From the NCBI GenBank assembly GCA_937873275.1, contig CALMRC010000087.1, forward strand, positions 8,816 through 72,815: 64,000 nt of DNA, in the 5' to 3' direction. A program made the position numbers and the translations under genes. The DNA is from an uncultured Spirochaetota bacterium. Lineage in GTDB: Bacteria > Spirochaetota > Spirochaetia > Treponematales > UBA12059. The stretch's first letter is position 1. Every line of letters starts with the position of its first letter. The notes beneath the pieces are model-generated. The model did no database searches and had not been told where the DNA came from. It was given only the letters and a program-made list of their open reading frames with translations. Shown here one piece after another: positions 3,333 to 15,854 of the stretch.

Positions 3333-4865
3333 ATGCCCTTCGAACCCATCCGCAGCCTCGAGCTTCGGGGCATCACGAAACGTTTTCCGGGGATCCTCGC
3401 CTGCGACCACATCGACCTGACCGTGGGCGAGCACTCGGTGCGCGCCCTCGTCGGGGAGAACGGCGCGGGCAAGACGACCCTCATGAACATCCTGATGGGC
3501 CTCTACCAGCCCGACGAGGGGCGGATCCTGATCAACGGCCGGGAGGTCCGGTTCCGGTCCCCGAACGACGCCTTCGCCCACGGGATCGGCATGGTGCACC
3601 AGCACTTCATGCTGGTCCCCAACATGACGGTGGCGGAAAACGTCGCCCTGGGGATGAAATCGTCCCATCGGCCGGGACGCCTGGACCTGGGTTCCGTCCG
3701 GAAGCGAATCCTGGAGATCTCCGAGCGCCACGAGCTCCCGGTGAATCCCGACGCCTACGTCTGGCAGCTCTCGGTAGGGGAACAGCAGCGGGTGGAGCTG
3801 GTGAAAACCCTCTGTCTGGGGGCCCGCTTCCTGATCCTGGACGAACCGACCTCGGCGCTGACGCCCCAGGAGACGGACGAACTCATCGAGCTCCTCAAGA
3901 AGATGTCCCGGGAACTGTCCGTGATTTTCATCAGCCACAAGCTCCACGAGGTCAAGGCCCTGTCCGACACGGTCTCGATTCTCCGCAGGGGCCGGATCGT
4001 CTTCGAAGGGCGCACCGAGGACCATTCCCCCGCGGACCTGGCCGCCCTCATGACGGGACACGAGGTGGCCCTCCCCTGCGTGGAATGCTCGGACGCGCCG
4101 CGGCCCGGGGGACCGGGGCTCCTGTACGTCCGGGACCTGCGGGTCCGGGGAGACCGAGGCAACCGGGCCCTGGACGGAGTCAGCCTCGACGTGTACTCCG
4201 GCGAGATCCTCGGCCTGGCCGGCGTTTCGGGCAACGGCCAGCGGGAACTCGCGGAGACCCTGAACGGCCTCCGCAAGCCCGAGTCCGGTTCCGTCCGGCT
4301 GGACGGAGTCGAGCTGGGAGGCTGCGGCGCGGACGCGGTGATCGCCGCCGGCATGGGCTACATCCCCGAGGACCGGAACACCGAGGGAATCGTTCCCTCC
4401 TTCTCGGTCCGGGAAAACCTGGTCCTCAAGGACGTGGGCACCGGCGGATGGAGCCGCGCCGGTTTCCTCCGGTTGGGACCCATCTCCCGCAACGCCGCCA
4501 CCCTGCGGGAGAGCTTCGACATCCGGTGCCCCTCGGTGGATACCGCCGCCGGCTCCCTGTCGGGAGGCAACATCCAGAAGGTCATCCTGGCCCGGGAGCT
4601 GTCCCGCCGCCCGAAGGCCCTGGTGGCGGTCTATCCCACCCGGGGCCTGGACATGGGAGCCGAGGAGTTCATCCACAAGCAGCTCCTGGCCCGGCGGGCC
4701 GAAGGGGCCGCGATCCTCCTCATATCCGAGGAACTGGACGAGATCATGAACCTGTCGGACCGGATCGCGGTCATCTACAAAGGCAGGATCCTCAAGGTAG
4801 TCCCCGGCCGCGAGGCCACCAAGCGTTCCCTGGGACTCCTGATGGCCGGAGTCCTCGATGAATAA
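3333..4865 (+). CDS. ABC transporter ATP-binding protein with tandem nucleotide-binding domains
   Basis: C-terminal 510 aa of the artefactual 645..4865 ORF. Walker A GENGAGKTT and GVSGNGQRE. Signatures LSVGEQQR and LSGGNIQK. Confidence 0.9.
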   Translation: MPFEPIRSLELRGITKRFPGILACDHIDLTVGEHSVRALVGENGAGKTTLMNILMGLYQPDEGRILINGREVRFRSPNDAFAHGIGMVHQHFMLVPNMTVAENVALGMKSSHRPGRLDLGSVRKRILEISERHELPVNPDAYVWQLSVGEQQRVELVKTLCLGARFLILDEPTSALTPQETDELIELLKKMSRELSVIFISHKLHEVKALSDTVSILRRGRIVFEGRTEDHSPADLAALMTGHEVALPCVECSDAPRPGGPGLLYVRDLRVRGDRGNRALDGVSLDVYSGEILGLAGVSGNGQRELAETLNGLRKPESGSVRLDGVELGGCGADAVIAAGMGYIPEDRNTEGIVPSFSVRENLVLKDVGTGGWSRAGFLRLGPISRNAATLRESFDIRCPSVDTAAGSLSGGNIQKVILARELSRRPKALVAVYPTRGLDMGAEEFIHKQLLARRAEGAAILLISEELDEIMNLSDRIAVIYKGRILKVVPGREATKRSLGLLMAGVLDE

Positions 4866-6075
4866 GTCGATGAAGGCGGTCTACAACGCCGTCGTTATCC
4901 TGGCCGCCGCCGCCGCGGCCCTGGGCGTCGGGGCCCTGGTCTTTGCGGCCGTCGGCGCCGACATCGCCAAGGCCTATACCGTGATCCTCACGGAGCCCCT
5001 GAAGGACCTCATCGGCTTGACCGAGATCGCGGTCCGGGCGATCCCCCTGACCCTGATCGCCCTGGGAATCGCGATCGCGTTCCGGAGCGGCACCCTCAAC
5101 ATCGGGGCCGAGGGCCAGATGATGATGGGGATCCTGGCCGCCAGCGCCACGGCCATCGCCCTGCCGGATTTGCCCAAGCCCGTCCTCCTGCCCCTGGCCG
5201 TCCTGGCCGGTGCGGCGGGAGGGGCCGTGTGGGGCACCGCCGCGGGTATCCTGAAGGCCCGCCTGGGTGTGAACGAGATCCTATCCACGGTGATGCTCAA
5301 CTACATCGCCGCCCAATTCTATACCTTCCTGCTCCGGGGACCCATGATGGATCCCGAGGAGCTGGTCACGGGGTCCGGCACTCCCCAGACCGTCCGGATC
5401 CCCCGGGCCGCCTGGCTGGATCGCCTTATTCCCGGCACACGGTTGCACGCCGGGGCCTTCCTGGCCCTGGCCCTGGCGGTCCTGGTGTTCATTCTCCTGT
5501 GGCGTACCTCCGCGGGCTTCCGAATGCGGGCGGCCGGCGCGGAGGCCAAGGCGGCCCGGTACGCGGGCATCCGGGTGGAGCGGTACGTCGTGGCCGCCAT
5601 GCTGCTCTCCGGGGCCTTCGCGGGAATCGCCGGGGCCGTGGAGATCCTGGGAGTCCACCGCCGGGCCATCGAGGGCGTCTCCGGGGGATACGGTTTCACG
5701 GGGATCGTGGTCTCCCTGTTCGGGGGGCTCCATCCCGCGGGAATCGTCCCGGCGTCCCTCTTCTTCGGTCTCCTCCTACTGGGGGCGGACATGACCCAGC
5801 GGCTCGCGGACGTCCCCGCGAACATGGTCCTCGTCCTCCAGGGCGCCATCATCCTGGCCATCGTCTCGGCCCGGCAGTTCATGAACAATCCCTACGTCCA
5901 GGATCGGCTCGCCCGAAAACTGTCCCGGCTCCTGGGAAAACCCGCCCCGAACCCGCCCGCTGGTTCCCGGGAGGCTTGCCCGGATCCTTCCGACTCCCCG
6001 GACCCCTGCCTGGCCGACGAGGCCGAACCCCGGACAGGCGGCGGATCCCCCGCCGAAACGGAGGAGCACCGATGA
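4858..6075 (+). CDS. ABC transporter permease (BMP/nucleoside-sugar type)
   Basis: 405 aa, multi-TM. ATG overlaps the upstream stop by 8 nt. Pro/Asp-rich C-terminal tail. Confidence 0.85.
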   Translation: MNKSMKAVYNAVVILAAAAAALGVGALVFAAVGADIAKAYTVILTEPLKDLIGLTEIAVRAIPLTLIALGIAIAFRSGTLNIGAEGQMMMGILAASATAIALPDLPKPVLLPLAVLAGAAGGAVWGTAAGILKARLGVNEILSTVMLNYIAAQFYTFLLRGPMMDPEELVTGSGTPQTVRIPRAAWLDRLIPGTRLHAGAFLALALAVLVFILLWRTSAGFRMRAAGAEAKAARYAGIRVERYVVAAMLLSGAFAGIAGAVEILGVHRRAIEGVSGGYGFTGIVVSLFGGLHPAGIVPASLFFGLLLLGADMTQRLADVPANMVLVLQGAIILAIVSARQFMNNPYVQDRLARKLSRLLGKPAPNPPAGSREACPDPSDSPDPCLADEAEPRTGGGSPAETEEHR

Positions 6076-7022
6076 GCGCCGGATCCTTCATCCTGAACAT
6101 CCTCATCCTGGGGGTTCCGTTCTCCGTGGCCCTCCTCCTGGCCGGCCTCGGGGAGACGATCAACCAGCGCGCCGGCGTCTTCAACCTGGGCTGCGAGGGC
6201 ATCATGGCCATGGGGGCCTTCCTGGCCTTCCTGCCTCCATACTTCCTGGCGGATACCCCCCTGGCCGGATCCGCGAACCTGATCGGCCTGCTCCTGGCGA
6301 TCGGTGCCGGGGTCCTGTTGGGTCTCCTCTTCGCGCTGGTGGTTGTGACCTTCCGGGCGCCCCAGGGGATCGCCGGGATCGGGCTTCAAATGCTGGGCTG
6401 GGGAACCGCGGGTACCCTGTTCCGCAAATACGTCGGAGGAGTGACCGGCGTCGCGGGCATAGCGCCCCTACCGATTCCGGGACTATCGCGCATCCCGATC
6501 CTCGGTCCCATCCTGTTCAACCACAATCCCCTGGTCTACCTGGCCTTCCTGCTCGTGCCCGTCTTCTGGTATGTCCTGTTCAAGACACCCTGGGGTCTAA
6601 AGGTGAGGGCCGTGGGAACCTACCCCCGGGCCGCGGATTCCCTGGGAATTCCCGTCGCCCGGGTCCGATACCAGGCCCTGGCCGTGGGGGGCGCCATGGC
6701 TGGCCTTGCGGGAGCCTACCTCAGCCTGGCCCAGGCCAAGATGTTCGCCGACGACCTCATCGCGGGGCGAGGCTTCATCGCCGTGGCCCTGGTGTATTTC
6801 GGCCGATGGAATCCCGTGGGGGTCCTGGGCGGCGCCCTCCTGTTCAGCCTGGCCCAGTCCCTCCAGCTTTCGATCCAGGTGGCGGGCATCGATTTCCCCT
6901 ACGAGTTCGCGGTCATGCTTCCCTACGCCCTGGTGATCCTGGTCCTCGCCCTGGTGCGGAAGTCCCGTATGGCGGGTCCCGCCGAGCTGGGCCGCCCCTT
7001 CGACCGGGAACAGCGGGTCTAG
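6072..7022 (+). CDS. ABC transporter permease (second subunit)
   Basis: In-frame ATG at 6072 forms an ATGA overlap with the upstream stop. 316 aa, multi-TM (MSAGSFILNILILGVPFSVALLLAGLGE...). Confidence 0.85.
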   Translation: MSAGSFILNILILGVPFSVALLLAGLGETINQRAGVFNLGCEGIMAMGAFLAFLPPYFLADTPLAGSANLIGLLLAIGAGVLLGLLFALVVVTFRAPQGIAGIGLQMLGWGTAGTLFRKYVGGVTGVAGIAPLPIPGLSRIPILGPILFNHNPLVYLAFLLVPVFWYVLFKTPWGLKVRAVGTYPRAADSLGIPVARVRYQALAVGGAMAGLAGAYLSLAQAKMFADDLIAGRGFIAVALVYFGRWNPVGVLGGALLFSLAQSLQLSIQVAGIDFPYEFAVMLPYALVILVLALVRKSRMAGPAELGRPFDREQRV

Positions 7023-7137: not shown

Positions 7138-8562
7138 GTGACCGCATCGAGGGATCCCGAAGAACGCTTCCTGCGCATGACGACCCGGCCGGTGGACCGG
7201 CTGATCCCGGGGCTGGCGGTGCCCACCATGGTCAGCATGATGGTCACCGCGTTCTACAACATGGCGGACACGTATTTCGTGGGCCGGATTTCCACGAGCG
7301 CCACCGGCGCGGTCGGCATCGTATTTCCCCTGATGACCATCCTCCAGGTCATCGGGATGACCCTGGGCGTGGGCTCCGGCAGCTTCGCGGCCCGTCAACT
7401 GGGAGCCCGAAGGCCGGACCGGGCGGCCGACGCGGCCTCCACCGCCTTCTTCACGGCCCTGATCTGCGGGCTCTTGCTGACGGTTGCCGGGGAAATCCTC
7501 CTGGAGCCGTTCATGCTCCTCCTGGGATCCACCCCGACGATCCTGCCCTACGCAGCGGCCTACGGCGGTCTCGTCCTTACCGGGGCGCCCTTCGTCGCGG
7601 CGTCCTTCGTGATGAACGTGAATCTTAGGTCCGAGGGCAGCGCGGTCCTGGCCATGATCGGGATCTCCGCCGGGGCGGTCGTGAACATCGCCCTGGATCC
7701 CCTGTTCATGTTCGTCCTGGGCATGGGCATACGGGGAGCCGCCGCGGCCACCGTCCTGAGCCAAATTCTGAGCTTCGCCATCCTGCTGTCCCACTACCGC
7801 CGCAGGAAAAGCGCCCTCCGCATCACCTTCCGGGGGGCGTCCTTCAGCCGGTCGATATACGCCGAGATCCTCGCGGGCGGCCTGCCCACCCTTTTCCGAC
7901 AGTCCGTGTCCATCCTCGGAGCCGTCGTCCTGAACACCGCGGCCCGGACCTACGGGGACGCCGCGGTGGCGGGAATGTCCGTGGTCACCCGGATCATGCT
8001 GTTCATGACCTCCGCCATGATCGGGTTCGGCCAGGGGTTCCAGCCCGTGGCCGCCTTCAACTACGCGGCCGGCCTCACGCACCGGGTCCGGGCGGCCTTC
8101 TGGTATTCCGTCCGGATCGGGGCCCTCTTCCTCTCCGCGTTCTCGGTCCTGATCCTCTCCTTCGCGCCGGAAGTCCTGCGGATGTTCCGGGACGACCCGG
8201 AAGTGATCCGGATCGGCGCCCGGGCCCTGCGGTTCCAGGCCGCCACCCTGCCCCTCACGTCCTTCATCGTGATCTCGAACATGATGTTCCAGTACATCGG
8301 CAAACCCGTGCAGGCGTCCGTTCTCGCCCTGTCCCGCCAGGGTCTGGCCTTCGTCCCCGCCGTCCTCGTGCTGTCCCGGCTCTTCGGCCTGGCGGGAATC
8401 CAGGTCAGCCAGTCCGTGGCGGACTTGGCGACCTTCCTGGCGGCGGTGCCCCTGGCGGCGGCTACCCTGCGGACCTTCCGGTCCGGGAATCCGGCCCGGG
8501 GATCCGGGACCGGGGGTACACCGGCGGGCTCGCCGTCCGGGATACCCGGGGAGGTCCCGTGA
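7138..8562 (+). CDS. MATE family efflux transporter
   Basis: 474 aa. GTG start after GGGGAGG. 12-TM-like profile with an N-terminus typical of MATE (VPTMVSMMVTAFYNMADTYFVGR). Confidence 0.9.
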   Translation: MTASRDPEERFLRMTTRPVDRLIPGLAVPTMVSMMVTAFYNMADTYFVGRISTSATGAVGIVFPLMTILQVIGMTLGVGSGSFAARQLGARRPDRAADAASTAFFTALICGLLLTVAGEILLEPFMLLLGSTPTILPYAAAYGGLVLTGAPFVAASFVMNVNLRSEGSAVLAMIGISAGAVVNIALDPLFMFVLGMGIRGAAAATVLSQILSFAILLSHYRRRKSALRITFRGASFSRSIYAEILAGGLPTLFRQSVSILGAVVLNTAARTYGDAAVAGMSVVTRIMLFMTSAMIGFGQGFQPVAAFNYAAGLTHRVRAAFWYSVRIGALFLSAFSVLILSFAPEVLRMFRDDPEVIRIGARALRFQAATLPLTSFIVISNMMFQYIGKPVQASVLALSRQGLAFVPAVLVLSRLFGLAGIQVSQSVADLATFLAAVPLAAATLRTFRSGNPARGSGTGGTPAGSPSGIPGEVP

Positions 8563-9029
8563 CCCGGCGACCGACGATCCTGCGCCACATCTCGATCCTG
8601 TACCGGCACAGCCAGATTCATATGAACCGGAGTCTCCGAGGCCTCGGACTGGGCGCCGGTCCGTACCCCTTCCTCCTCGCGGTGAACCGCCGGCCGGGTA
8701 TGAGCCAGGACGAATTGGCCGAGGATCTCGCCATGGACCGGGGCACCACCGCCCGGGCCGTACGGGACTTGGAGAAGGCCGGTTACCTGGTCCGCTCCGG
8801 GGATCCCCGGGACAGACGGGTTCAGCGTCTGTCGGTCACCGAATCGGGAACCGGCATGGTCGAGCTTCTGGATGAACTTCTGAGGAGCTGGATGGAGGTT
8901 CTGTTCTCGGGATTCACGGATCCGGAGCGGGCAGCGGCCCGGGATCTGGTCGAGCGGATGTCGGAGAACGCCCGGACCCGGCTGTCCGGGGAATCGGGAC
9001 CGTCCCTCAGAGCTTCCAGCCGACCATGA
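8559..9029 (+). CDS. MarR family transcriptional regulator
   Basis: 156 aa. GTGA overlap with the MATE stop. Winged-helix core (MSQDELAEDLAMDRGTTARAVRDLEKAGYLVR...DRRVQRLSVT). Confidence 0.85.
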   Translation: MTRRPTILRHISILYRHSQIHMNRSLRGLGLGAGPYPFLLAVNRRPGMSQDELAEDLAMDRGTTARAVRDLEKAGYLVRSGDPRDRRVQRLSVTESGTGMVELLDELLRSWMEVLFSGFTDPERAAARDLVERMSENARTRLSGESGPSLRASSRP

Positions 9030-9999
9030 ACCAGAAGGAGTCCTGGAAGGCCGTGAGGCCGAGTCCGCCGGAATCCGCGAAGGCCGCCAGGGAAAGCTGG
9101 ACGCGGCCCCCCACCAGCAGGCGGCCCAGGCGGGCGTCGACGCCCAGGTCCAGGCTGTACTGGAGGTCCGAGAGGATGGAGGCGTAGGCGGACGGCCAGT
9201 CCAGGAACACGTAGCCGACCTTGACGGCGGCCCAGGGAAGGAGGATCCCCAGGGGGCGGGCGTAGCCCAGACCCAGGTCGCCGGACAGGGCCGCGGCGCC
9301 GTAGTCCGCCACGGCGTCCAGGTACGTCAGGCTCCCCACCGCGCAGAGGCCTTTCCAGATTCCGACCATTCCGTACAGGTCGAAGCCGATGGATTCGTAG
9401 GTCCCCGTGCCGAGATCGTCGTCCAGCCGCTGCCCGCCCGTGCCGATCCCGCCGTAGATGCGGGTTCCCACGGCGGCCGCGTCGGCCGGCCGCGCGGTCG
9501 GCTTGGGCGCGGGTTTCCGGACCGAGGACGGGGCGGCCTTCCGGGGAACCCCCGCCAGCCCGTCCCCGGCTTCCCCGGCAAGTTCCAGGAGGATCGAGGC
9601 CCGCCCCTCCCCCTCCGCGGAAACCTGCCGGGCGATGATCCCCGTGTCCACCGCGATCATCTTGGCGGTCACCAGGTAGGTGCGGTCGATGCGCTGGACC
9701 CGGATGGCCACCACGAAATCGGCGCCCAGGTATTTCCCGGCCTCGGAGATCTCGGTATCGGATACAAGGCCGGAGAGCTGGAATTCCCGCTCCCGCAGGA
9801 CCTGTTCCACGTTGATCCGGTCGAGTACCACGAAGCGGCCGGACAGGACCAGGCGCCCGGTCAGCTTTTCCGCGACCGCGGCGGCCGCGGACCGGTCGAT
9901 CCCCTTCTGCAGGTCCGCGTCCAGGACGGCGACCTTGGGCTGGGCCGCCGCGGCGGCGGAGAGTAAGATCACGGCGAGGGATATCAGGGTTCTTCTCAT
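9007..9999 (-). CDS. secreted protein with an N-terminal CsgG/LpoB-like domain and a C-terminal beta-barrel-like region
   Basis: 330 aa. Signal peptide MRRTLISLAVILLSAAAAAQP. N-terminal half has a CsgG/LpoB-type pattern. Gly/aromatic-rich C-terminal half ends FWFMVGWKL. SD AGGAG. Confidence 0.6.
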   Translation of the reverse strand: MRRTLISLAVILLSAAAAAQPKVAVLDADLQKGIDRSAAAAVAEKLTGRLVLSGRFVVLDRINVEQVLREREFQLSGLVSDTEISEAGKYLGADFVVAIRVQRIDRTYLVTAKMIAVDTGIIARQVSAEGEGRASILLELAGEAGDGLAGVPRKAAPSSVRKPAPKPTARPADAAAVGTRIYGGIGTGGQRLDDDLGTGTYESIGFDLYGMVGIWKGLCAVGSLTYLDAVADYGAAALSGDLGLGYARPLGILLPWAAVKVGYVFLDWPSAYASILSDLQYSLDLGVDARLGRLLVGGRVQLSLAAFADSGGLGLTAFQDSFWFMVGWKL

Positions 10000-10059: not shown

Positions 10060-10641
10060 TCAAGTTCGCCCGTTGTTCCGGCGCTTGTCCTCGTACATGG
10101 ACCGGTCCGCCCGGTCCACCAATTCCGGAAGGCTTTCGCAGGTCGCCGTGTCGAAGGAGGCGGTCCCGATGGACAGGTCGATCTTCCAGGGCTTCCCGGA
10201 CGAGGCGTTCCAGGTCCGCACCGCCTCCCGCACCCGGGTCATCAAGGCCTCGACGGATCCCGGCTTCGTGTTCGCCTGCAGGGCGATGAACTCGTCGCCT
10301 CCGATTCGGGCGAGGATATCCCCGGACCGGACGCAGCCGGACAGGATTCCCGCGGCGGCCCGTAGGGCATCGTCGCCCTCGGCGTGGCCGAACCGGTCGT
10401 TGATGCTCTTGAAGTCGTCCAGGTCGAAGTAGAGGATCGCGAAGGATCCGTTCCCCCGGCTCGCGACCTTGTGGTGCTGATCCGCGAGCTCGTCGAAGGC
10501 CCTCCGGTTCCGGATGCCCGTCAGGGGATCGATCCGCGAGGCCTGCTCGAGCTCGCGGTTGAGGCGCAGGAGCTCCCGCTTCGCGTTCACGAGCTCGTTG
10601 TTCATCCGGGAGAATTCCTCCAGCAGCTCCTCCTGGGTCAT
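10060..10641 (-). CDS. diguanylate cyclase: coiled coil plus GGDEF domain, no sensor domain
   Basis: 193 aa. GGDEF intact with an RxxD I-site (RSGD-ILARI-GGDEF). N-terminal heptad-rich helix. SD AAGGAG. Starts 6 nt after the upstream B12-domain gene. Confidence 0.9.
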   Translation of the reverse strand: MTQEELLEEFSRMNNELVNAKRELLRLNRELEQASRIDPLTGIRNRRAFDELADQHHKVASRGNGSFAILYFDLDDFKSINDRFGHAEGDDALRAAAGILSGCVRSGDILARIGGDEFIALQANTKPGSVEALMTRVREAVRTWNASSGKPWKIDLSIGTASFDTATCESLPELVDRADRSMYEDKRRNNGRT

Positions 10642-10647
10642 GCCCTT

Positions 10648-11724
10648 CTACTCCTTCGGCCCCGGGGTGCCCGTGACAAGACGGGTTCCGGCTTCCACGG
10701 CCTTCTCGCAGTCGGAGCCCGTGGCGTCGGCACCGATCTCCTTCCAGAGCCCTTCGGCGATCAGGAAGGGAAATCCACCCACCAGTACGGCGGGACGCCG
10801 GGGATCCCGGGATCGGAGCGCCTCGATGGACCGGGCTATCCAGCGGACGTTCTCCGGCAGGGTGGCGGACAGGGCGACCAGGTCGGGCCGCAGCCTCTCA
10901 ACCTCGGCGAGGAGGGAGTCGGCGGGCAGGTTCGCCCCGAAGTACCGGGAATCCCACCCCTCGGCCTGGAAAAAATCCGCCACCATCCGGATGCCGACCT
11001 CGTGCAGCTCCCCCTGGGCGCAGGCCGCCACCAGGACCCTTCCGTTCGTCCGGGACTGGGCGATAAGTCGGGGGTACAGCTCCGACATCAGGTATTGGGT
11101 GGCCGCCGTGGCGAAGTGCTCCTGGGCCACGGAGATCTCCCGCACGTGCCAGAGCCGTCCGACCTCCCGCTGGGCGGGCTGGAACAGATCCAGGTAGAGG
11201 GACCGGATCGACACGCCCCGGGAAAGCTCCGCGTCGACGACCATCCGGGCCCGATCGCGTTGACCGTCCACCAGGGACCGCACGTAGGCGTGCACCGCGG
11301 TCCCCGGCGGGGGACCACCCGACCCGTAGCCTTCCGCGTCGGGATCCATGCGGGCGTACAGTTCCGATGCCCGATCCGCCCGATCCCGGATCGCGCGGGC
11401 GTCCTCTTCCCCCAGAACCGCGGCGGCGGCCCGTCCCGCGCAGCGTAAGGAGTCCTCGACGAGGTCATCCGGTAGGCGCAGACCCCGGAACAGGACTTTC
11501 AGCCAGGATATATAATCCCGGAAGGCGGCCTCACCCCCCGGGAGACCGGACTGGGCGAGCCTTCGGACGTGGTGGGCCATGTCCTCCCGGGCCCGGAGAA
11601 GGCTTCGCCCGTCGTACCGGTCTTTGAGCTCCGGCCGCGACTCGAACAGGAGGTCCAGCGCGGTTCCGGCCGCTTCGTCCGGTCGTTCGATGAGATCTTC
11701 CAGCGTTCGAGCATTCCGGCCCAT
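10648..11724 (-). CDS. CarH-like cobalamin-binding (photoreceptor-type) protein without a DNA-binding domain
   Basis: 358 aa. Cap motif W-x9-EH (RLWHVREISVAQEH). ELHEVG-x41-SAT-x27-GG. No HTH. About 140 aa of unassigned helical N-terminus. Confidence 0.8.
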   Translation of the reverse strand: MGRNARTLEDLIERPDEAAGTALDLLFESRPELKDRYDGRSLLRAREDMAHHVRRLAQSGLPGGEAAFRDYISWLKVLFRGLRLPDDLVEDSLRCAGRAAAAVLGEEDARAIRDRADRASELYARMDPDAEGYGSGGPPPGTAVHAYVRSLVDGQRDRARMVVDAELSRGVSIRSLYLDLFQPAQREVGRLWHVREISVAQEHFATAATQYLMSELYPRLIAQSRTNGRVLVAACAQGELHEVGIRMVADFFQAEGWDSRYFGANLPADSLLAEVERLRPDLVALSATLPENVRWIARSIEALRSRDPRRPAVLVGGFPFLIAEGLWKEIGADATGSDCEKAVEAGTRLVTGTPGPKE

Positions 11725-11779: not shown

Positions 11780-11807
11780 AGTATAGGCCGCCCGGCGGGT
11801 TTCGCAA
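11780..11807 (-). promoter_or_regulatory. putative promoter TTGCGA-16-TATACT for the B12-domain/GGDEF operon
   Basis: Read on the minus strand: -35 at 11807-11802, -10 at 11785-11780. About 50-nt leader to the ATG at 11724. Confidence 0.4.
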
Positions 11808-11892: not shown

Positions 11893-12582
11893 ATGACGGA
11901 CTACGATCTGGACGGCCTCTTGTCGGACATCCTGGACGCCCGCCTGGACTCCGCCCTCGGCCGGCTTTCGGTGGCCGCCGCACGGGACGGCTATCCCCGT
12001 ATCATCCATGATTATCTGGAGCCGGTTCTCCAGCGCACGGGACGGATGTGGATGGAGGGTACCATTTCCCTGGCCCAGAGCTATATCGCGGGTAAGGTCG
12101 CCGAGCGGGTTCTCGAGGAGGCGTTGGAGGCGGGCAGGCCGGGACTCGGGGGACAGCCCCGGGGGATCGCGGTGCTCGGGAACATCGAAGACGACTTCCA
12201 CGCCCTGGGGAGGAGGATGGTGGCGTCCTTCCTTCGCCTGGACGGGTGGGAGATCCTGGACCTCGGGAACGATGTCGCCCCCGGACGGTTCGTCGAGGCC
12301 GCCCTCGACCATGACGCCCGGATCATCGGAGTTTCCGCCATGATGCTCTCCACGGCCCTGAACATCCGGGGGATCCGGGATGAGTTGGACCGTCGGAACC
12401 TGTCCGGAATCCTGCCCATGGCCGTGGGAGGCGCCGTGTTCAACCTCAGGCCCGGTCTCGTGGAGGAAGTCGGAGGGGACGGCACGGCCGCCAGCGCCAT
12501 GGACGCCCCGGCCCTGTTCCGTAGTCTCGTCGAAAGCCCGGACGCCCGTCCGGCCGGGGGGACAGAAGGGGGTCCGGTCTGA
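11893..12582 (+). CDS. methyltransferase-type corrinoid (B12-binding) protein
   Basis: In-frame ATG at 11893, 229 aa. B12 cap helix bundle (W-x9-SY, non-photoreceptor type). DDFHALG-x41-SAM-x28-GG. Confidence 0.8.
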   Translation: MTDYDLDGLLSDILDARLDSALGRLSVAAARDGYPRIIHDYLEPVLQRTGRMWMEGTISLAQSYIAGKVAERVLEEALEAGRPGLGGQPRGIAVLGNIEDDFHALGRRMVASFLRLDGWEILDLGNDVAPGRFVEAALDHDARIIGVSAMMLSTALNIRGIRDELDRRNLSGILPMAVGGAVFNLRPGLVEEVGGDGTAASAMDAPALFRSLVESPDARPAGGTEGGPV

Positions 12583-12596
12583 TCCCCGTAGAGCGG

Positions 12597-13595
12597 GTGG
12601 CCGCCCTGTTTTCAGGAGGTCCCTACGACCGGCCTCCCTACGGATTGGTCTGCTGCACTTTGGGGGCGACCTTGACGTCCGCGGCGGTGGAGGAGTACTA
12701 CGCGAATCCGGGTCTCTACGTCCGGGGACAGAGGGCCGTGTGCTCCTACCTGGATCCGGACATCGTCTTCACCCCCTTCGTCTTCGCCTTCGAGGCCGCC
12801 GCCTTCGGGGCGGAGCTCGCCCCCCAGAAAAACTCGGTTCCGAACGTCCGCAAGCCGCCGTTCCGGTCCGCCCGGGCCGCCCTGGAGCATCCCGATTCGG
12901 ACCCGGGATCCGACCCCTTCCTGAGATTCCTGACCGACTCTTCGGCCGATTGCGCCGAAGCCTTCCGCGGGGAACGGATCGTCGCGGCGCCCATCGTGGC
13001 TCCAACCGACCTCCCCGCCCTCCTCCTGGGGATCGAGGGTTGGATGGAAATACTCCTGTTCCGGCCGGAGGACGCGGAGGGGCTTTTTTCCAAGGCCCGG
13101 CGCCATTTCGCGGCCCTCGCGGAAGCCTATCGATCCGCGGGAGTGTCGATCCTCGTCATGCCGATGATGTTCGCGAATCCCCGGATCCTGGACGAGGAAT
13201 CCATCCGCCGCCTCGCCCTGCCCGTCCTGGAGGCGGCCCTCCGGGATTGCCCCTTGCCGGTGGTGCTTCACCACGGGGGAACCGCGTTCGCCGAACGGAT
13301 CGGCCTGTATACGGGGCTTCCGAACCTCGCGGGATTCGCCCTCGGAGCCCAGGACAGTTTCTCCCGTGCCCGGGACATCACGGGCCCGGATACGGTCCTG
13401 CTGGGAAATATTTCGGGACCCTGTTTCGACGTGTACACCCGGGACTCCCTCTCCTCCTCCCTGACGGCTCTCCTCGAGGACCGGCGGAACGACCGTCGAT
13501 GGATTTTCGCGAACGGGGGAGCGGAGCTCCCCGCGTGGACCCCCCCGGACCGGTTGACCCTGGTCCGGGACATCCTGCAAGGCCGTCTCCCGTGA
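12597..13595 (+). CDS. uroporphyrinogen decarboxylase (URO-D)/MtaA-like methyltransferase family protein
   Basis: 332 aa. URO-D/MT2-like sequence pattern. Expected Zn-ligand positions read LHHGG and ANGGAELP, with no Cys. Confidence 0.75.
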   Translation: MAALFSGGPYDRPPYGLVCCTLGATLTSAAVEEYYANPGLYVRGQRAVCSYLDPDIVFTPFVFAFEAAAFGAELAPQKNSVPNVRKPPFRSARAALEHPDSDPGSDPFLRFLTDSSADCAEAFRGERIVAAPIVAPTDLPALLLGIEGWMEILLFRPEDAEGLFSKARRHFAALAEAYRSAGVSILVMPMMFANPRILDEESIRRLALPVLEAALRDCPLPVVLHHGGTAFAERIGLYTGLPNLAGFALGAQDSFSRARDITGPDTVLLGNISGPCFDVYTRDSLSSSLTALLEDRRNDRRWIFANGGAELPAWTPPDRLTLVRDILQGRLP

Positions 13596-14245
13596 GCCTC
13601 TCCGGAAACCCGGGTACCCGGATCCGCGTTCTGTCCTGCGGCATCCTGAAAGCCGAACTCAACGCCCTGTCCCCTTCCATCCTTCGGCACCTGGAGATCG
13701 TGCTCCTCGATTCGATTCTCCACATGCGGCCCCAGGATCTGGAATCCGGTCTTCGCCGCCTGCTGGATTCCGAGCCCGTCGGTCCCGCGATCCTGGCATT
13801 CGGGGACTGCGCCCCGGGGATGCGGGAGATCTGCCAACGGCCCGGTCTCCTGCGCCTGCCCGGGATCAACTGCTGCGAGATCGTCCTGGGCCGGGAGCGG
13901 TTTCGGGAACTTCGCAGGCAGGGCACCTTCCTGTTCATGCCGGAATGGACGGTACGGTGGCGGGAAATCTTCGGATTGGAGCTGGGATTCCGGGACGCCG
14001 ACCTGGCCCGGGACTTCATGACGGAATCCATGGATTCCCTCGCCTACGTGGACACCGGGGTCGTTCCCATCCCTCGCTCCATCCTTCGGGAAATCGAGGA
14101 GCACTTCCGAATGCCCGTCCGCATCGAGGCCGCGGGGCTCGGGATCCTGGAGGCCACCCTCCGGGAGGCCCTTTCCAAGCTGGGCGTTCCGTTCACCACG
14201 GTATCCGGGGACCCCTCCGCTCCGGGAGAGGAATCACCCGCATGA
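13592..14245 (+). CDS. DUF1638 domain protein
   Basis: GTG at 13592 in a GTGA overlap, 217 aa. DUF1638-like pattern (IRVLSCGILKAEL...AFGDCAPG...INCCEIVLG...FLFMPEW). Confidence 0.65.
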   Translation: MSLSGNPGTRIRVLSCGILKAELNALSPSILRHLEIVLLDSILHMRPQDLESGLRRLLDSEPVGPAILAFGDCAPGMREICQRPGLLRLPGINCCEIVLGRERFRELRRQGTFLFMPEWTVRWREIFGLELGFRDADLARDFMTESMDSLAYVDTGVVPIPRSILREIEEHFRMPVRIEAAGLGILEATLREALSKLGVPFTTVSGDPSAPGEESPA

Positions 14246-15462
14246 ACGGCTCCGAGAAGAGCGCCCTGTCCATCCTTCTGGCCGACCTCCTGGAGGAAAT
14301 CCTGAGCCGGGCGGACAACCCCGGAGAGTGCGCGTCCCACCTGGCGGGGCGGATCCGGGAGATCATCGGAGTCAAGACGGTACTGGTGTTCCTGGGCTCC
14401 GAGTTCAGCCGCACCCGGGCCCACGAACTGGTGTCGGCGGTTCCGGCCCGGCGGAAAGACTTCGCCTCGGAACCGGGCTTGCTCCGACTCCTGGATACGA
14501 TGTACGAACTGGATTCATCGCGGTTCCTGGATCCCGACGAAGAGTGCGCCGAACCTCTGCCGACAGCCCTCGGGGCGGCGCTCCGGGAAGCCGGGTTCGG
14601 TCCCAGTATCCTCGTTCCCCTGCGGTACGCGGAAAAGAGGATGGGCGCCCTCCTGCTTCTGGATATCCTGGACCGGAGCGGTCTGGAGAATCTCCTCGCG
14701 ACCCTTGACCGCCTGTCCGGCGTGCTGGCCCTGGTCCTCCGGAATTCCTTCATGTACCTGAATCTGGAGGACGCGGTCCGTCACCGCACCGCGGACCTCC
14801 TGGCGGAGCGGGAACAACTGAGGACGGCCCTGGAGGAGAAAAACGTCCTGCTCCAGGAGATCCACCACCGGGTCAAGAACAACCTGCAGATCATCGAGAG
14901 CCTCCTCTACCTCCAGGGACAGCGGACCGGCGAAGCCGAGGCGGCTTCGGCCCTGCGGACGGCCCGGGGACGCATCACCTCCATGGCCCTCGTCCACGAG
15001 GAGCTGTACTCCTCGGACGACCTTTCCTCGGTGGACCTCGGACGGTACGTCCCGCGCCTGGCCCGCGCGATTCTCGCCAGCCACGGTTGCCCCGCCGCCG
15101 CGACCTTTTCCTTGGCCCCCCTGCCGGTAAGTCTGAATGCCGGAATCCACCTAGGCCTGATCCTGAACGAACTGGTCACGAACGCCGTAAAGTACGCCCT
15201 CCGGGACCGGTCCGACGGCCGGCTGGAAATCCGCATCGAGGCGGAGGGCGGGGAATGCCGCATTGAACTGCGGGATGACGGACCCGGCTTCCCTCCGGAT
15301 CTCCCTTCCGAGGGCCGGGAGAGACTGGGGATGTCCATCGTACGGAGCCTGGCGGAGCAGTTCGGGGGGACGGTCCGATGGTTCGGGGGGATCGGCCGGG
15401 AGGACGGGGCGCCGGGGATGACCGTGGAGGTTCGTCTTTCCCGGGAGGCGCTGGAGCGATGA
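14242..15462 (+). CDS. GAF domain-containing HisKA_2-type sensor histidine kinase
   Basis: ATG at 14242 in an ATGA overlap, 406 aa. H-box EIHHRVKNNLQIIESLL. HATPase N/G boxes (NELVTNAVKY, DDGPGFP). No TM segment. Confidence 0.85.
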   Translation: MNGSEKSALSILLADLLEEILSRADNPGECASHLAGRIREIIGVKTVLVFLGSEFSRTRAHELVSAVPARRKDFASEPGLLRLLDTMYELDSSRFLDPDEECAEPLPTALGAALREAGFGPSILVPLRYAEKRMGALLLLDILDRSGLENLLATLDRLSGVLALVLRNSFMYLNLEDAVRHRTADLLAEREQLRTALEEKNVLLQEIHHRVKNNLQIIESLLYLQGQRTGEAEAASALRTARGRITSMALVHEELYSSDDLSSVDLGRYVPRLARAILASHGCPAAATFSLAPLPVSLNAGIHLGLILNELVTNAVKYALRDRSDGRLEIRIEAEGGECRIELRDDGPGFPPDLPSEGRERLGMSIVRSLAEQFGGTVRWFGGIGREDGAPGMTVEVRLSREALER

Positions 15463-15854
15463 GGATCATAATAGCCGAGGACGAACGTCTCATCGCCATG
15501 GCCCTGGAAGTCGTCCTGCGGGATCTGGGCCACGAGGTGCAGGCGGTCTGTCCCTCCGGAACTTCCTGCGTACAGAAGACCCGGGAGCTCCGGCCGGACC
15601 TGGTCTTCCTGGACATCTGCATGGAAACCCGGACCGCGGGCATCGACGCCGCCCGGGAGATCCGTACCTTCGCGGACGCGGCCGTGATATACACCACCGC
15701 CTACGACGACCCCCAGACGAAGTCCGCCGCGGCCGAAACCGCGCCGGCCGCCTTCCTCGTGAAACCCCTACGCCCGGAGGACATCGAAACCGCCCTGCGA
15801 TCCCTGGGAACCGAAGCTTCGGACCCGGGGGACGCCGGGACGCGGCCTCGTTAG
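15459..15854 (+). CDS. stand-alone receiver-domain response regulator
   Basis: ATG at 15459 in an ATGA overlap, 131 aa. DERL...DLVFLDICM...VKP receiver pattern, no output domain. Confidence 0.85.
   Translation: MRIIIAEDERLIAMALEVVLRDLGHEVQAVCPSGTSCVQKTRELRPDLVFLDICMETRTAGIDAAREIRTFADAAVIYTTAYDDPQTKSAAAETAPAAFLVKPLRPEDIETALRSLGTEASDPGDAGTRPR

Follow-up and report, generated by a model that had tools for sequence, protein, structure and literature searches.

The stretch of DNA analysed here (64,000 nucleotides of contig CALMRC010000087.1, assembly GCA_937873275.1, from an uncultured Spirochaetota bacterium of the Treponematales; hereafter the window) carries on its minus strand two closely spaced genes. 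The first, which we call the sensor gene, codes for a 358-aa protein with a cobalamin (B12) binding module, and the second for a 193-aa protein with a GGDEF-type diguanylate cyclase domain. Both open reading frames (ORFs) start with ATG and are listed with the other features of the locus in Table 1. Their translation agrees with an earlier reading of the same DNA, made by a model from the letters alone and referred to below as the sequence-only reading.

Pfam finds two domains in the sensor, B12-binding_2 (residues 145-216, 1.5e-14) and B12-binding (residues 231-335, 1.1e-18), and has no match to residues 1-140. It detects no helix-turn-helix domain anywhere in the protein, so the MerR-type DNA-binding domain of CarH/LitR is missing, as the sequence-only reading had stated. 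The AlphaFold2 model of the full sensor, built on a 60-homologue alignment, is compact and confident (pLDDT 92.5, pTM 0.87).

Table 1. Features of the sensor-cyclase locus; positions are those of the window.
Feature	Position	Strand	Description and basis
Photocobilin (sensor) gene	10648..11724	-	358 aa; photoglobin, four-helix cap and Rossmann B12-binding domain in that order; ORF, Pfam, PDB, AlphaFold2
Photoglobin (putative bilin-binding globin)	11341..11724	-	residues ~1-128; D48, H52, Y71, W74 conserved; A45 at the phycobiliprotein Cys position
Four-helix cap (B12-binding_2)	11062..11298	-	residues ~143-221; G189xxW192-H193 and E202-H203; Pfam, SasPcob alignment
Rossmann B12-binding domain	10672..11043	-	residues ~228-351; G238xxH241 with the lower axial His, G263xxxP267, S286AT, G316G317
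Diguanylate cyclase gene	10060..10641	-	193 aa; N-terminal partner helix and GGDEF domain; Pfam, NCBIfam
Partner helix	10528..10629	-	cyclase residues 5-38, QEELLEEFSRMNNELVNAKRELLRLNRELEQASR; helix profile 3e-12
Shine-Dalgarno AAGGAG	10651..10656	-	for the cyclase gene, inside the last codons of the sensor gene
Sigma-70-like promoter candidate	11780..11807	-	TTGCGA-16-TATACT; precedes the sensor gene within the 168 bp that separate it from the divergent gene; consensus scan
Secreted CsgG/LpoB-like protein gene	9007..9999	-	330 aa; 60 nt downstream of the cyclase gene; weak Pfam matches to CsgG (8.8e-07) and LpoB (9.9e-05)

The B12 module was examined for the residues that distinguish light-responsive proteins. 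Direct reading of the translation gives G189-R-L-W192-H193 ... E202-H203 in the cap, i.e., W-x9-EH with a His directly after the Trp, and E239-L-H241-E-V-G244, 41 residues, S286-A-T288, 27 residues, G316-G317 in the Rossmann domain. These spacings are exactly those counted in the sequence-only reading. A four-part light-response signature has been defined as GxxW, EH, GxxH and GxxxP (PMC11796333). It is complete in the sensor, as G189xxW192, E202-H203, G238xxH241 and G263xxxP267. Among 60 homologues of 33-72% identity the signature is invariant with the exception of G238 (54/60), and W192, E202, H203, H241, E242, G244, S286, G316 and G317 are each present in 60/60.

Comparison with all PDB sequences ranks two photocobilins first: SasPcob of Saccharothrix syringae (8J2W in the dark, 8J2X in the light; 7.5e-23) and AbPcob (8J2Y, 2.7e-18), the sensor part of the cyclase fusion AbDPcob from an Acidimicrobiaceae bacterium. 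They are followed by the light-responsive CtMerR domain (8JBS, 3.3e-16) and CarH (5C8A, 6.3e-12), with corrinoid methyl carriers and methionine synthase at 1e-7 or worse and AerR at 2.8e-4. The NCBIfam CarH equivalog model scores 61 bits against a cut-off of 400, through the B12 part alone. In the HMMER alignment to 8J2W, W192 falls on Trp61, E202-H203 on Glu71-His72 and H241 on the lower-ligand His108 (the numbering of SasPcob in PMC10979010 equals the chain index plus 6, an offset verified on three residues). In Foldseek the B12 module of the full model superposes on 8J2W with a root-mean-square deviation (rmsd) of 1.9 A over 202 columns, and CarH and CtMerR are structural matches of the same module. 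Only the B12 module was covered in this comparison, since the solved photocobilins have their domains in another order; predicted members with a C-terminal B12 domain are reported to superpose on SasPcob (PMC10979010). By its signature and its nearest structures, the B12 module is of the photoreceptor type and not of the enzyme or methyl-carrier type. The sequence-only reading had assigned it to the same type, and the coincidence of the cap residues and the lower His with their SasPcob equivalents is in line with that assignment.

The N-terminal part, a helical region that the sequence-only reading was unable to assign, could be identified by profile and fold. In the first PDB search residues 17-93 gave a weak match to the C-terminal globin of 8J2W, residues 41-113 matched the allophycocyanin ApcD5 (8UHE), and ApcD3 matched residues 41-128. 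Many sensor homologues carry a precomputed Pfam Phycobilisome match. A profile of residues 1-138 constructed from 30 family members and run against PDB sequences matches allophycocyanins and phycocyanins (best 2.1e-10, an allophycocyanin), the SasPcob globin (residues 226-318, 1.2e-7) and the AbPcob globin (6e-6). A separate model of the domain (pLDDT 91.4) retrieves exclusively phycobiliproteins and the biliverdin-binding smURFP among its top 50 Foldseek matches, with query-normalised TM-scores of 0.61-0.75 and rmsd of about 2-3 A over some 120 columns.

In the profile D48 lies on the Asp of the phycobiliprotein CxRD motif, in the 8J2W alignment it lies on Asp270 of SasPcob, and W74 aligns with SasPcob Trp296. 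Taken alone, the globin alignment to 8J2W is weak (domain i-Evalue 38); the correspondence of D48 and W74 is supported by the profile match at 1.2e-7. Asp270 is the key biliverdin contact in SasPcob, and Trp296 touches both ring D of the bilin and the corrin (PMC10979010). D48, Y71 and W74 are invariant in 60/60 homologues and H52 is kept in 56/60. The position of the phycobiliprotein Cys is occupied in the family by Cys (22/60), Ser (16/60) or Ala (15/60). Since it is Ala (A45) in the window sensor, any bilin would be bound non-covalently, as in SasPcob. The N-terminal domain is thus identified, from profile and predicted fold, as a phycobiliprotein-like photoglobin, which is predicted by analogy to hold a linear tetrapyrrole non-covalently while packed on the adenosylcobalamin (AdoCbl) binding module. 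With a photoglobin carrying conserved Asp48 and Trp74 at its N-terminus and a photoreceptor-type B12 module behind it, the sensor is a photocobilin whose bilin domain precedes the B12 domain, rather than a bare CarH-type module. The globin-before-B12 order has already been listed in bioinformatic surveys (PMC8717448, PMC10979010, PMC11796333).

The cyclase gene follows at once. The sensor gene ends with the stop codon TAG at 10650-10648, which is separated by a 6-nt spacer (aagggc) from the cyclase ATG at 10641. GGDEF is the sole Pfam match of the product (residues 37-190, 2.3e-38, profile positions 3-159 of 161), and NCBIfam TIGR00254 scores 3.5e-40 (137.5 bits against a cut-off of 37.4). The G114-G-D-E-F118 motif is intact, and the product-inhibition site (I-site) R105-S-G-D108 lies exactly 5 residues before it. 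By domain match and motifs the enzyme looks catalytically intact. The size of the cyclase, its lack of a sensory domain, the 6-nt gap, the Shine-Dalgarno sequence and the intact GGDEF and RxxD motifs had all been noted in the sequence-only reading and stand. It had also described a heptad-rich helix in front of the GGDEF domain; this helix is present, but is not a generic coiled coil: it carries a specific motif found in nearly all partner proteins of the family (see below). Its heptads place L17, L24 and L31 at d positions and N14, K21 and N28 at a positions. Because of this combination of Leu at d with Asn, Lys and Asn at a, the sequence suggests a marginally stable parallel coiled coil.

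The sensor belongs to a large family. Of the 8,000 candidates scored in the protein search, 533 reached E <= 1e-5, and at least 581 loci exist in species-representative genomes. Among the matches listed, the family spans archaeal methanogens, Chloroflexota, Acidobacteriota, Bacteroidota, Azospirillum and Paenibacillus, and all four of the species-level relatives nearest to the window sensor come from spirochaetes (73, 53, 46 and 48% identity). Gene neighbourhoods were examined at 80 of the at least 581 loci (numbered from L001) and on the extra contigs L081-L087, making 88 sequences with the window. In 61 loci scanned with Pfam, the gene directly downstream of the sensor codes for a histidine kinase in 50 and for a GGDEF protein in 7. 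A GGDEF gene is directly downstream in the close relatives L001, L002 and L004, while the contig of L003 stops inside the downstream gene, which carries the partner helix. In L081 (70% identity) the sensor, a 200-aa GGDEF protein and a 331-aa CsgG-like protein form the same trio as in the window. L082 (52%) has a PAS-GGDEF gene overlapping the sensor gene by 4 nt, L086 (44%) has a GGDEF gene after the sensor, and L084 (45%) has a sensor-less HisKA_2 kinase of 239 aa in place of the cyclase. The adjacency of a B12-domain gene and a GGDEF gene, to which the sequence-only reading had drawn attention, is therefore kept in L001, L002, L004, L081, L082 and L086, and that of the sensor with a helix-bearing partner is kept across phyla.

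Full-length family members are also present in archaea (L009, L016, L039, L049 and L058, from Methanotrichaceae, Promethearchaeota, Methanoregula and Methanohalophilus). In L009, L016, L049 and L058 the archaeal sensor is followed by a helix-bearing partner. For a protein regarded as a putative light sensor, such an occurrence in strict anaerobes is remarkable.

Whatever their output domain, the downstream proteins share the motif (L/M)NNEL(V/A)N.QREL.KKN.EL..LN, located just before HisKA or GGDEF and summarised here as LNNELxNxQRELxKKNxEL. We searched the six-frame ORFs of the 80 loci (608,000 residues) with a strict regular expression for this helix and obtained 57 matches, of which 56 are in the gene directly after the sensor and 1 is in a sensor fusion. 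A hidden Markov model (HMM) built from the 57 partner-helix segments matches the downstream or fused gene in 73 of the 80 loci. The 7 loci without a match include 2 contigs ending at the sensor and the fusion L063. Every extra contig (L081-L087) is matched too. The HMM has no match in the other kinases and GGDEF proteins of those sequences, nor elsewhere in the 64-kb window.

Two single ORFs combine the components. L031:775-2724 encodes photoglobin, B12 domains, partner helix and HisKA-HATPase, and L063:5947-8814 has the same order with two receiver domains in addition. Since sensor, helix and HisKA-HATPase are fused in L031 and L063, the helix can link the sensor directly to the output. By analogy, the window pair looks like the split form of such a fusion, in which the second protein begins with the helix. 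Overall, the data support the sensor and its downstream gene as a conserved functional unit. The L063 record is titled as a Klebsiella pneumoniae metagenome-assembled genome (MAG); for this gene family that looks like a quirk of binning or labelling.

The typical kinase partner (L005:7024-7455, L012:7031-7470 and most others) has a further N-terminal domain of about 140 aa with no Pfam match and a consensus starting G..L.CD..G, as well as a weaker first helix (..LM.INNEQ.N.LR) some 35 residues ahead of the main one. The window cyclase lacks both the domain and the first helix.

A gene of about 100 codons for an ABM-family monooxygenase is located directly upstream of the sensor gene, on the same strand, in 25 of the 80 loci (including L006, L020, L021, L024, L026-L028, L031, L035, L038, L042, L054, L055, L060, L061, L067, L069-L071, L073, L077 and L079, among others), so that ABM, sensor and helix-kinase make a recurrent cassette. 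Some ABM-fold enzymes degrade haem, and the upstream gene could supply a linear tetrapyrrole. Over the loci examined, no ABM gene was found in the window or at any spirochaete locus.

The photoglobin-B12 family was catalogued in 2021, with the globin either before or after the B12 domains (Schneider et al., PMC8717448), and its neighbourhoods are rich in kinase, GGDEF and ABM monooxygenase genes (PMC8717448, PMC11796333). The window sensor has one of the catalogued architectures, photoglobin, B12-binding_2, B12-binding (PMC8717448; BBD-CBD clusters of SignatureFinder, PMC11796333). Both surveys are purely computational. Schneider et al. list S-helix among the operon domains (PMC8717448); in the passages of PMC8717448 and PMC11796333 consulted, no description was found of the LNNELxNxQREL helix as something that the downstream genes have in common.

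Among characterised proteins, SasPcob (PMC10979010) is the closest in composition. Like the window sensor, it is one protein of about 340-360 aa that joins a CarH-type AdoCbl domain and a phycobiliprotein-like globin, has no output domain, carries the W/EH/His signature, keeps the biliverdin-contact Asp and Trp and lacks a Cys for covalent bilin attachment. The two differ in the place of the globin (N-terminal in the window sensor, C-terminal in SasPcob) and in the residue after the Trp (His and Gln, respectively), and their B12 modules are about 30% identical. The proposed partners of SasPcob are of the STAS/SpoIIE type (PMC10979010), whereas a helix-GGDEF gene follows the window sensor. AbDPcob (PMC10979010) resembles the proposed window pair in that a B12/bilin sensor controls a GGDEF cyclase. 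It is, however, one polypeptide with a long flexible linker instead of two genes, and the window cyclase differs in bearing the family-specific N-terminal helix. The bilin-contact Asp is replaced by His in AbPcob, which binds biliverdin weakly, but is retained in the window sensor. TtCarH/LitR (5C8A, 5C8D, 3WHP) has the same B12 fold and signature, including Trp-His and Glu-His. Unlike it, the window sensor has no MerR-type domain, possesses an extra globin and would have an enzyme partner rather than operator DNA as its output. Nor does the sensor group with AerR/PpaA: the 7TE2 match is at 2.8e-4 and no CrtJ/PpsR-type regulator is encoded within +/-5 kb. Bacteriophytochrome-GGDEF and LOV-GGDEF proteins have a dimeric coiled coil before the GGDEF domain, whose conformation sets catalytic pairing. 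There the helix is covalently attached to the sensor and the chromophores are others, whereas the window sensor is a separate B12/bilin protein.

Several properties of photocobilins are known experimentally (Zhang et al., 2024; PMC10979010). In the dark, photocobilins loaded with AdoCbl dimerise head to tail. Their Co-C bond is cleaved by green light and, with biliverdin bound, by red light too; once the adenosyl group is lost, the Glu-His helix moves and SasPcob turns monomeric (PMC10979010). The AbDPcob cyclase fusion turns over more than 10-fold faster in the light, and binding of AdoCbl in the dark already lowers its cyclase activity relative to the apo protein (PMC10979010). Furthermore, when a standalone photocobilin is added in trans to an isolated cyclase domain in vitro, the latter changes in both activity and oligomeric state (PMC10979010). 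The sequence-only reading took the characterised B12 photoreceptors to be transcription factors or antirepressors, a view that is thus outdated.

Building on the established domain identities, signature residues, conserved synteny, partner-specific helix and fusion proteins, we propose that an AdoCbl/bilin sensor controls the adjacent cyclase via the N-terminal helix of the latter, and we give this a probability of about 0.6. Sensor and cyclase would be made together from one operon with a 6-nt gap and the Shine-Dalgarno sequence within the sensor coding sequence. In the dark the AdoCbl-loaded sensor would be a head-to-tail dimer, by analogy with SasPcob and AbDPcob. Green light would act on AdoCbl directly and red light via the bilin, if bound; the Co-C bond would be cleaved, the adenosyl group depart and the EH helix move. 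The resulting change in the quaternary state of the sensor may alter its engagement of the cyclase helix, which would in turn set whether two GGDEF domains pair productively. The output of cyclic di-GMP (c-di-GMP) would shift, capped through product inhibition at the RxxD I-site. Cofactor binding, photochemistry, the sensor-cyclase contact and the sign of the regulation we infer by analogy with the characterised proteins. The core idea of the sequence-only reading, that a B12-type sensor in one protein is paired with a cyclase without sensor domain in another, is sound as an inference.

The CsgG/LpoB-like product of the next gene on the strand has a signal peptide without a lipobox Cys, and its Gly/aromatic-rich C-terminal half may form a small beta-barrel. 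The protein could belong to the unit as a third member. The sequence-only reading had suggested this protein as a surface output; its matches to CsgG and LpoB are weak, and the link to the cyclase is speculative, as the gene is kept beside the sensor-GGDEF pair in L081 only and has a promoter-like site of its own at 10063-10035. This site, like that in front of the sensor gene, comes from a consensus scan which gave 4 sites against 0.4 expected, so both are candidates by consensus only.

On the opposite strand, divergent from the sensor gene, is a cluster of five genes (11893-15854). It codes for a second B12-binding protein (11893-12582), which has DxHxxG with W-x9-SY instead of EH and is therefore methyl-carrier-like, a URO-D/MtaA-like protein (12597-13595), DUF1638 (13595-14245), a HisKA_2/HWE kinase (14248-15462) and a receiver-only response regulator (15459-15854). 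It is unusual for a corrinoid-methyltransferase-like set to be joined with a two-component pair. In L001, the closest relative listed, the first two genes likewise diverge from the sensor gene, and the whole block is absent from the otherwise syntenic L081. The HisKA_2 kinase was considered as a partner of the sensor and rejected: it lacks the helix motif and its block is missing in L081. The synteny with L081 comprises transketolase, ADH, GFO_IDH, sensor, GGDEF, CsgG-like and two BPD_transp_2 permease genes. In the comparison with L081, which took in the window regions 7138-9029 and 4858-7022, a MatE-MarR block (7138-9029) and the block from the second B12 protein to the response regulator (11893-15854) are extra in the window.

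Several observations weigh against light control of the cyclase by this sensor. Our literature search found no biochemistry for the window protein or for any family member that begins with the bilin domain. Those photocobilins that have been characterised carry their domains in the reverse order, and the partner helix may be missing from their diguanylate cyclase partner. The published trans-regulation relied on non-cognate proteins in vitro (PMC10979010). Cys is present at the bilin attachment position in 22/60 family members but replaced by Ala here. Neither a haem oxygenase nor an ABM monooxygenase gene adjoins the sensor gene, in contrast to the 25 loci with ABM directly upstream; the ABM profile has no match in the window, and Pfam assigns 30 other window genes to housekeeping, transport and regulation, with no haem oxygenase and no cobalamin gene among them. 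The closest species-level relative among the matches listed is a Treponema MAG from a biogas-reactor genome collection (PMC7038595), i.e., from a dark, anoxic digester, therefore light may not be the natural signal.

In a habitat that is dark and anoxic, the same two-protein switch could accordingly be driven by a chemical input, such as AdoCbl availability (apo versus loaded protein) or a tetrapyrrole or redox state. We regard this as possible rather than probable. Apart from the digester relative and the lack of a neighbouring bilin-forming gene, it is favoured by the many family members in strict anaerobes (e.g., Methanoregula, Methanotrichaceae, Methanohalophilus, Dehalococcoidales) and by the lowered activity of AbDPcob upon AdoCbl binding in the dark (PMC10979010). 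Rfam has no match in the whole 64-kb window, so neither a cobalamin nor a c-di-GMP riboswitch is present. Because of the anaerobic relatives, the absence of a nearby bilin-forming gene and the absence of a riboswitch in the window, a role as a dark sensor of AdoCbl status is a serious rival to light sensing. Yet the sensor keeps all residues of the light-response signature, including the CarH-like His after the Trp (the same residues serve AdoCbl binding too), the bilin-contact D48 and W74 are invariant in the 60 homologues, and the habitat from which a MAG was recovered is no proof of permanently dark life.

Explanations that dispense with the pairing of sensor and cyclase were rejected as best explanations, each being contradicted by several results. 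It is extremely unlikely that the sensor acts as an MtaC/MtbC-type corrinoid methyl-carrier for the divergently encoded URO-D/MtaA-like methyltransferase, with the GGDEF adjacency incidental. Homologues do carry JGI names such as 'methanogenic corrinoid protein MtbC1', and URO-D/MtaA-like and DUF1638 genes lie on the other strand (12597-14245), but the NCBIfam scores are far under their cut-offs (MtgC 60 versus 370 bits, pyl_corrinoid 44 versus 215), PDB photoreceptors are far ahead of MttC (7.5e-23 versus 1.3e-7), and the invariant EH and the photoglobin are not methyl-carrier features. Moreover, the methyltransferase cluster has its own corrinoid protein and is absent in L081 while the sensor-GGDEF pair stays. 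We give little credence to an AerR-like antirepressor role, in which the sensor would control a transcription factor such as the nearby MarR protein (8559-9029) and the cyclase would be merely co-transcribed. AerR (7TE2) is a detectable relative and has no DNA-binding domain either, and against this role stand the absence of the MarR-MatE block from L081, the lack of a CrtJ/PpsR-type partner within +/-5 kb, and the partner-specific helix and sensor-helix-kinase fusions, which indicate the downstream gene as the target. Equally hard to sustain is the idea that the two genes are mere neighbours and the cyclase is constitutive or only product-inhibited. Short GGDEF proteins with a coiled-coil stalk can be active alone, but the 6-nt spacing with its embedded Shine-Dalgarno sequence, the adjacency conserved across phyla, the confinement of the helix motif to sensor-adjacent or fused genes (73/80 loci, with none in other kinases or GGDEF proteins) and the existence of sensor-helix-output fusions argue for coupling.

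The architecture, the reversed-order variants and the GGDEF neighbourhoods are already in the literature, and the window locus is an uncharacterised new member: a natural two-protein example of the photoreceptor class characterised in 2024. What is added here is the quantitative synteny of the family, the partner-specific helix and the fusion proteins, together with the features of this clade, namely Ala for Cys, His after Trp, no adjacent ABM gene and a GGDEF protein in place of the kinase. We tentatively suggest, at odds well short of even, that the helix (about 35 residues with Asn/Gln at heptad position a) is a portable receiver which couples B12/bilin sensors to kinases, cyclases and PAS proteins, whether fused or separate. 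In the spirochaete clade it would drive c-di-GMP synthesis, perhaps in response to AdoCbl status or an anaerobically made tetrapyrrole rather than light, the non-light role being considered because of the dark anoxic habitats and the lack of an adjacent bilin-forming enzyme. The presence of the family in strict anaerobes raises the question of whether light is always the signal.

The published photocobilin work that we found deals either with a standalone protein without a proven target or with a fusion. The window locus and its relatives provide a compact natural sensor-effector pair (358 and 193 aa), from which one could learn how a photocobilin without a fused output locates and regulates its target. 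A mutable handle on this question is offered by the partner-specific helix, which is possibly also a handle for placing other enzymes under green- or red-light control.

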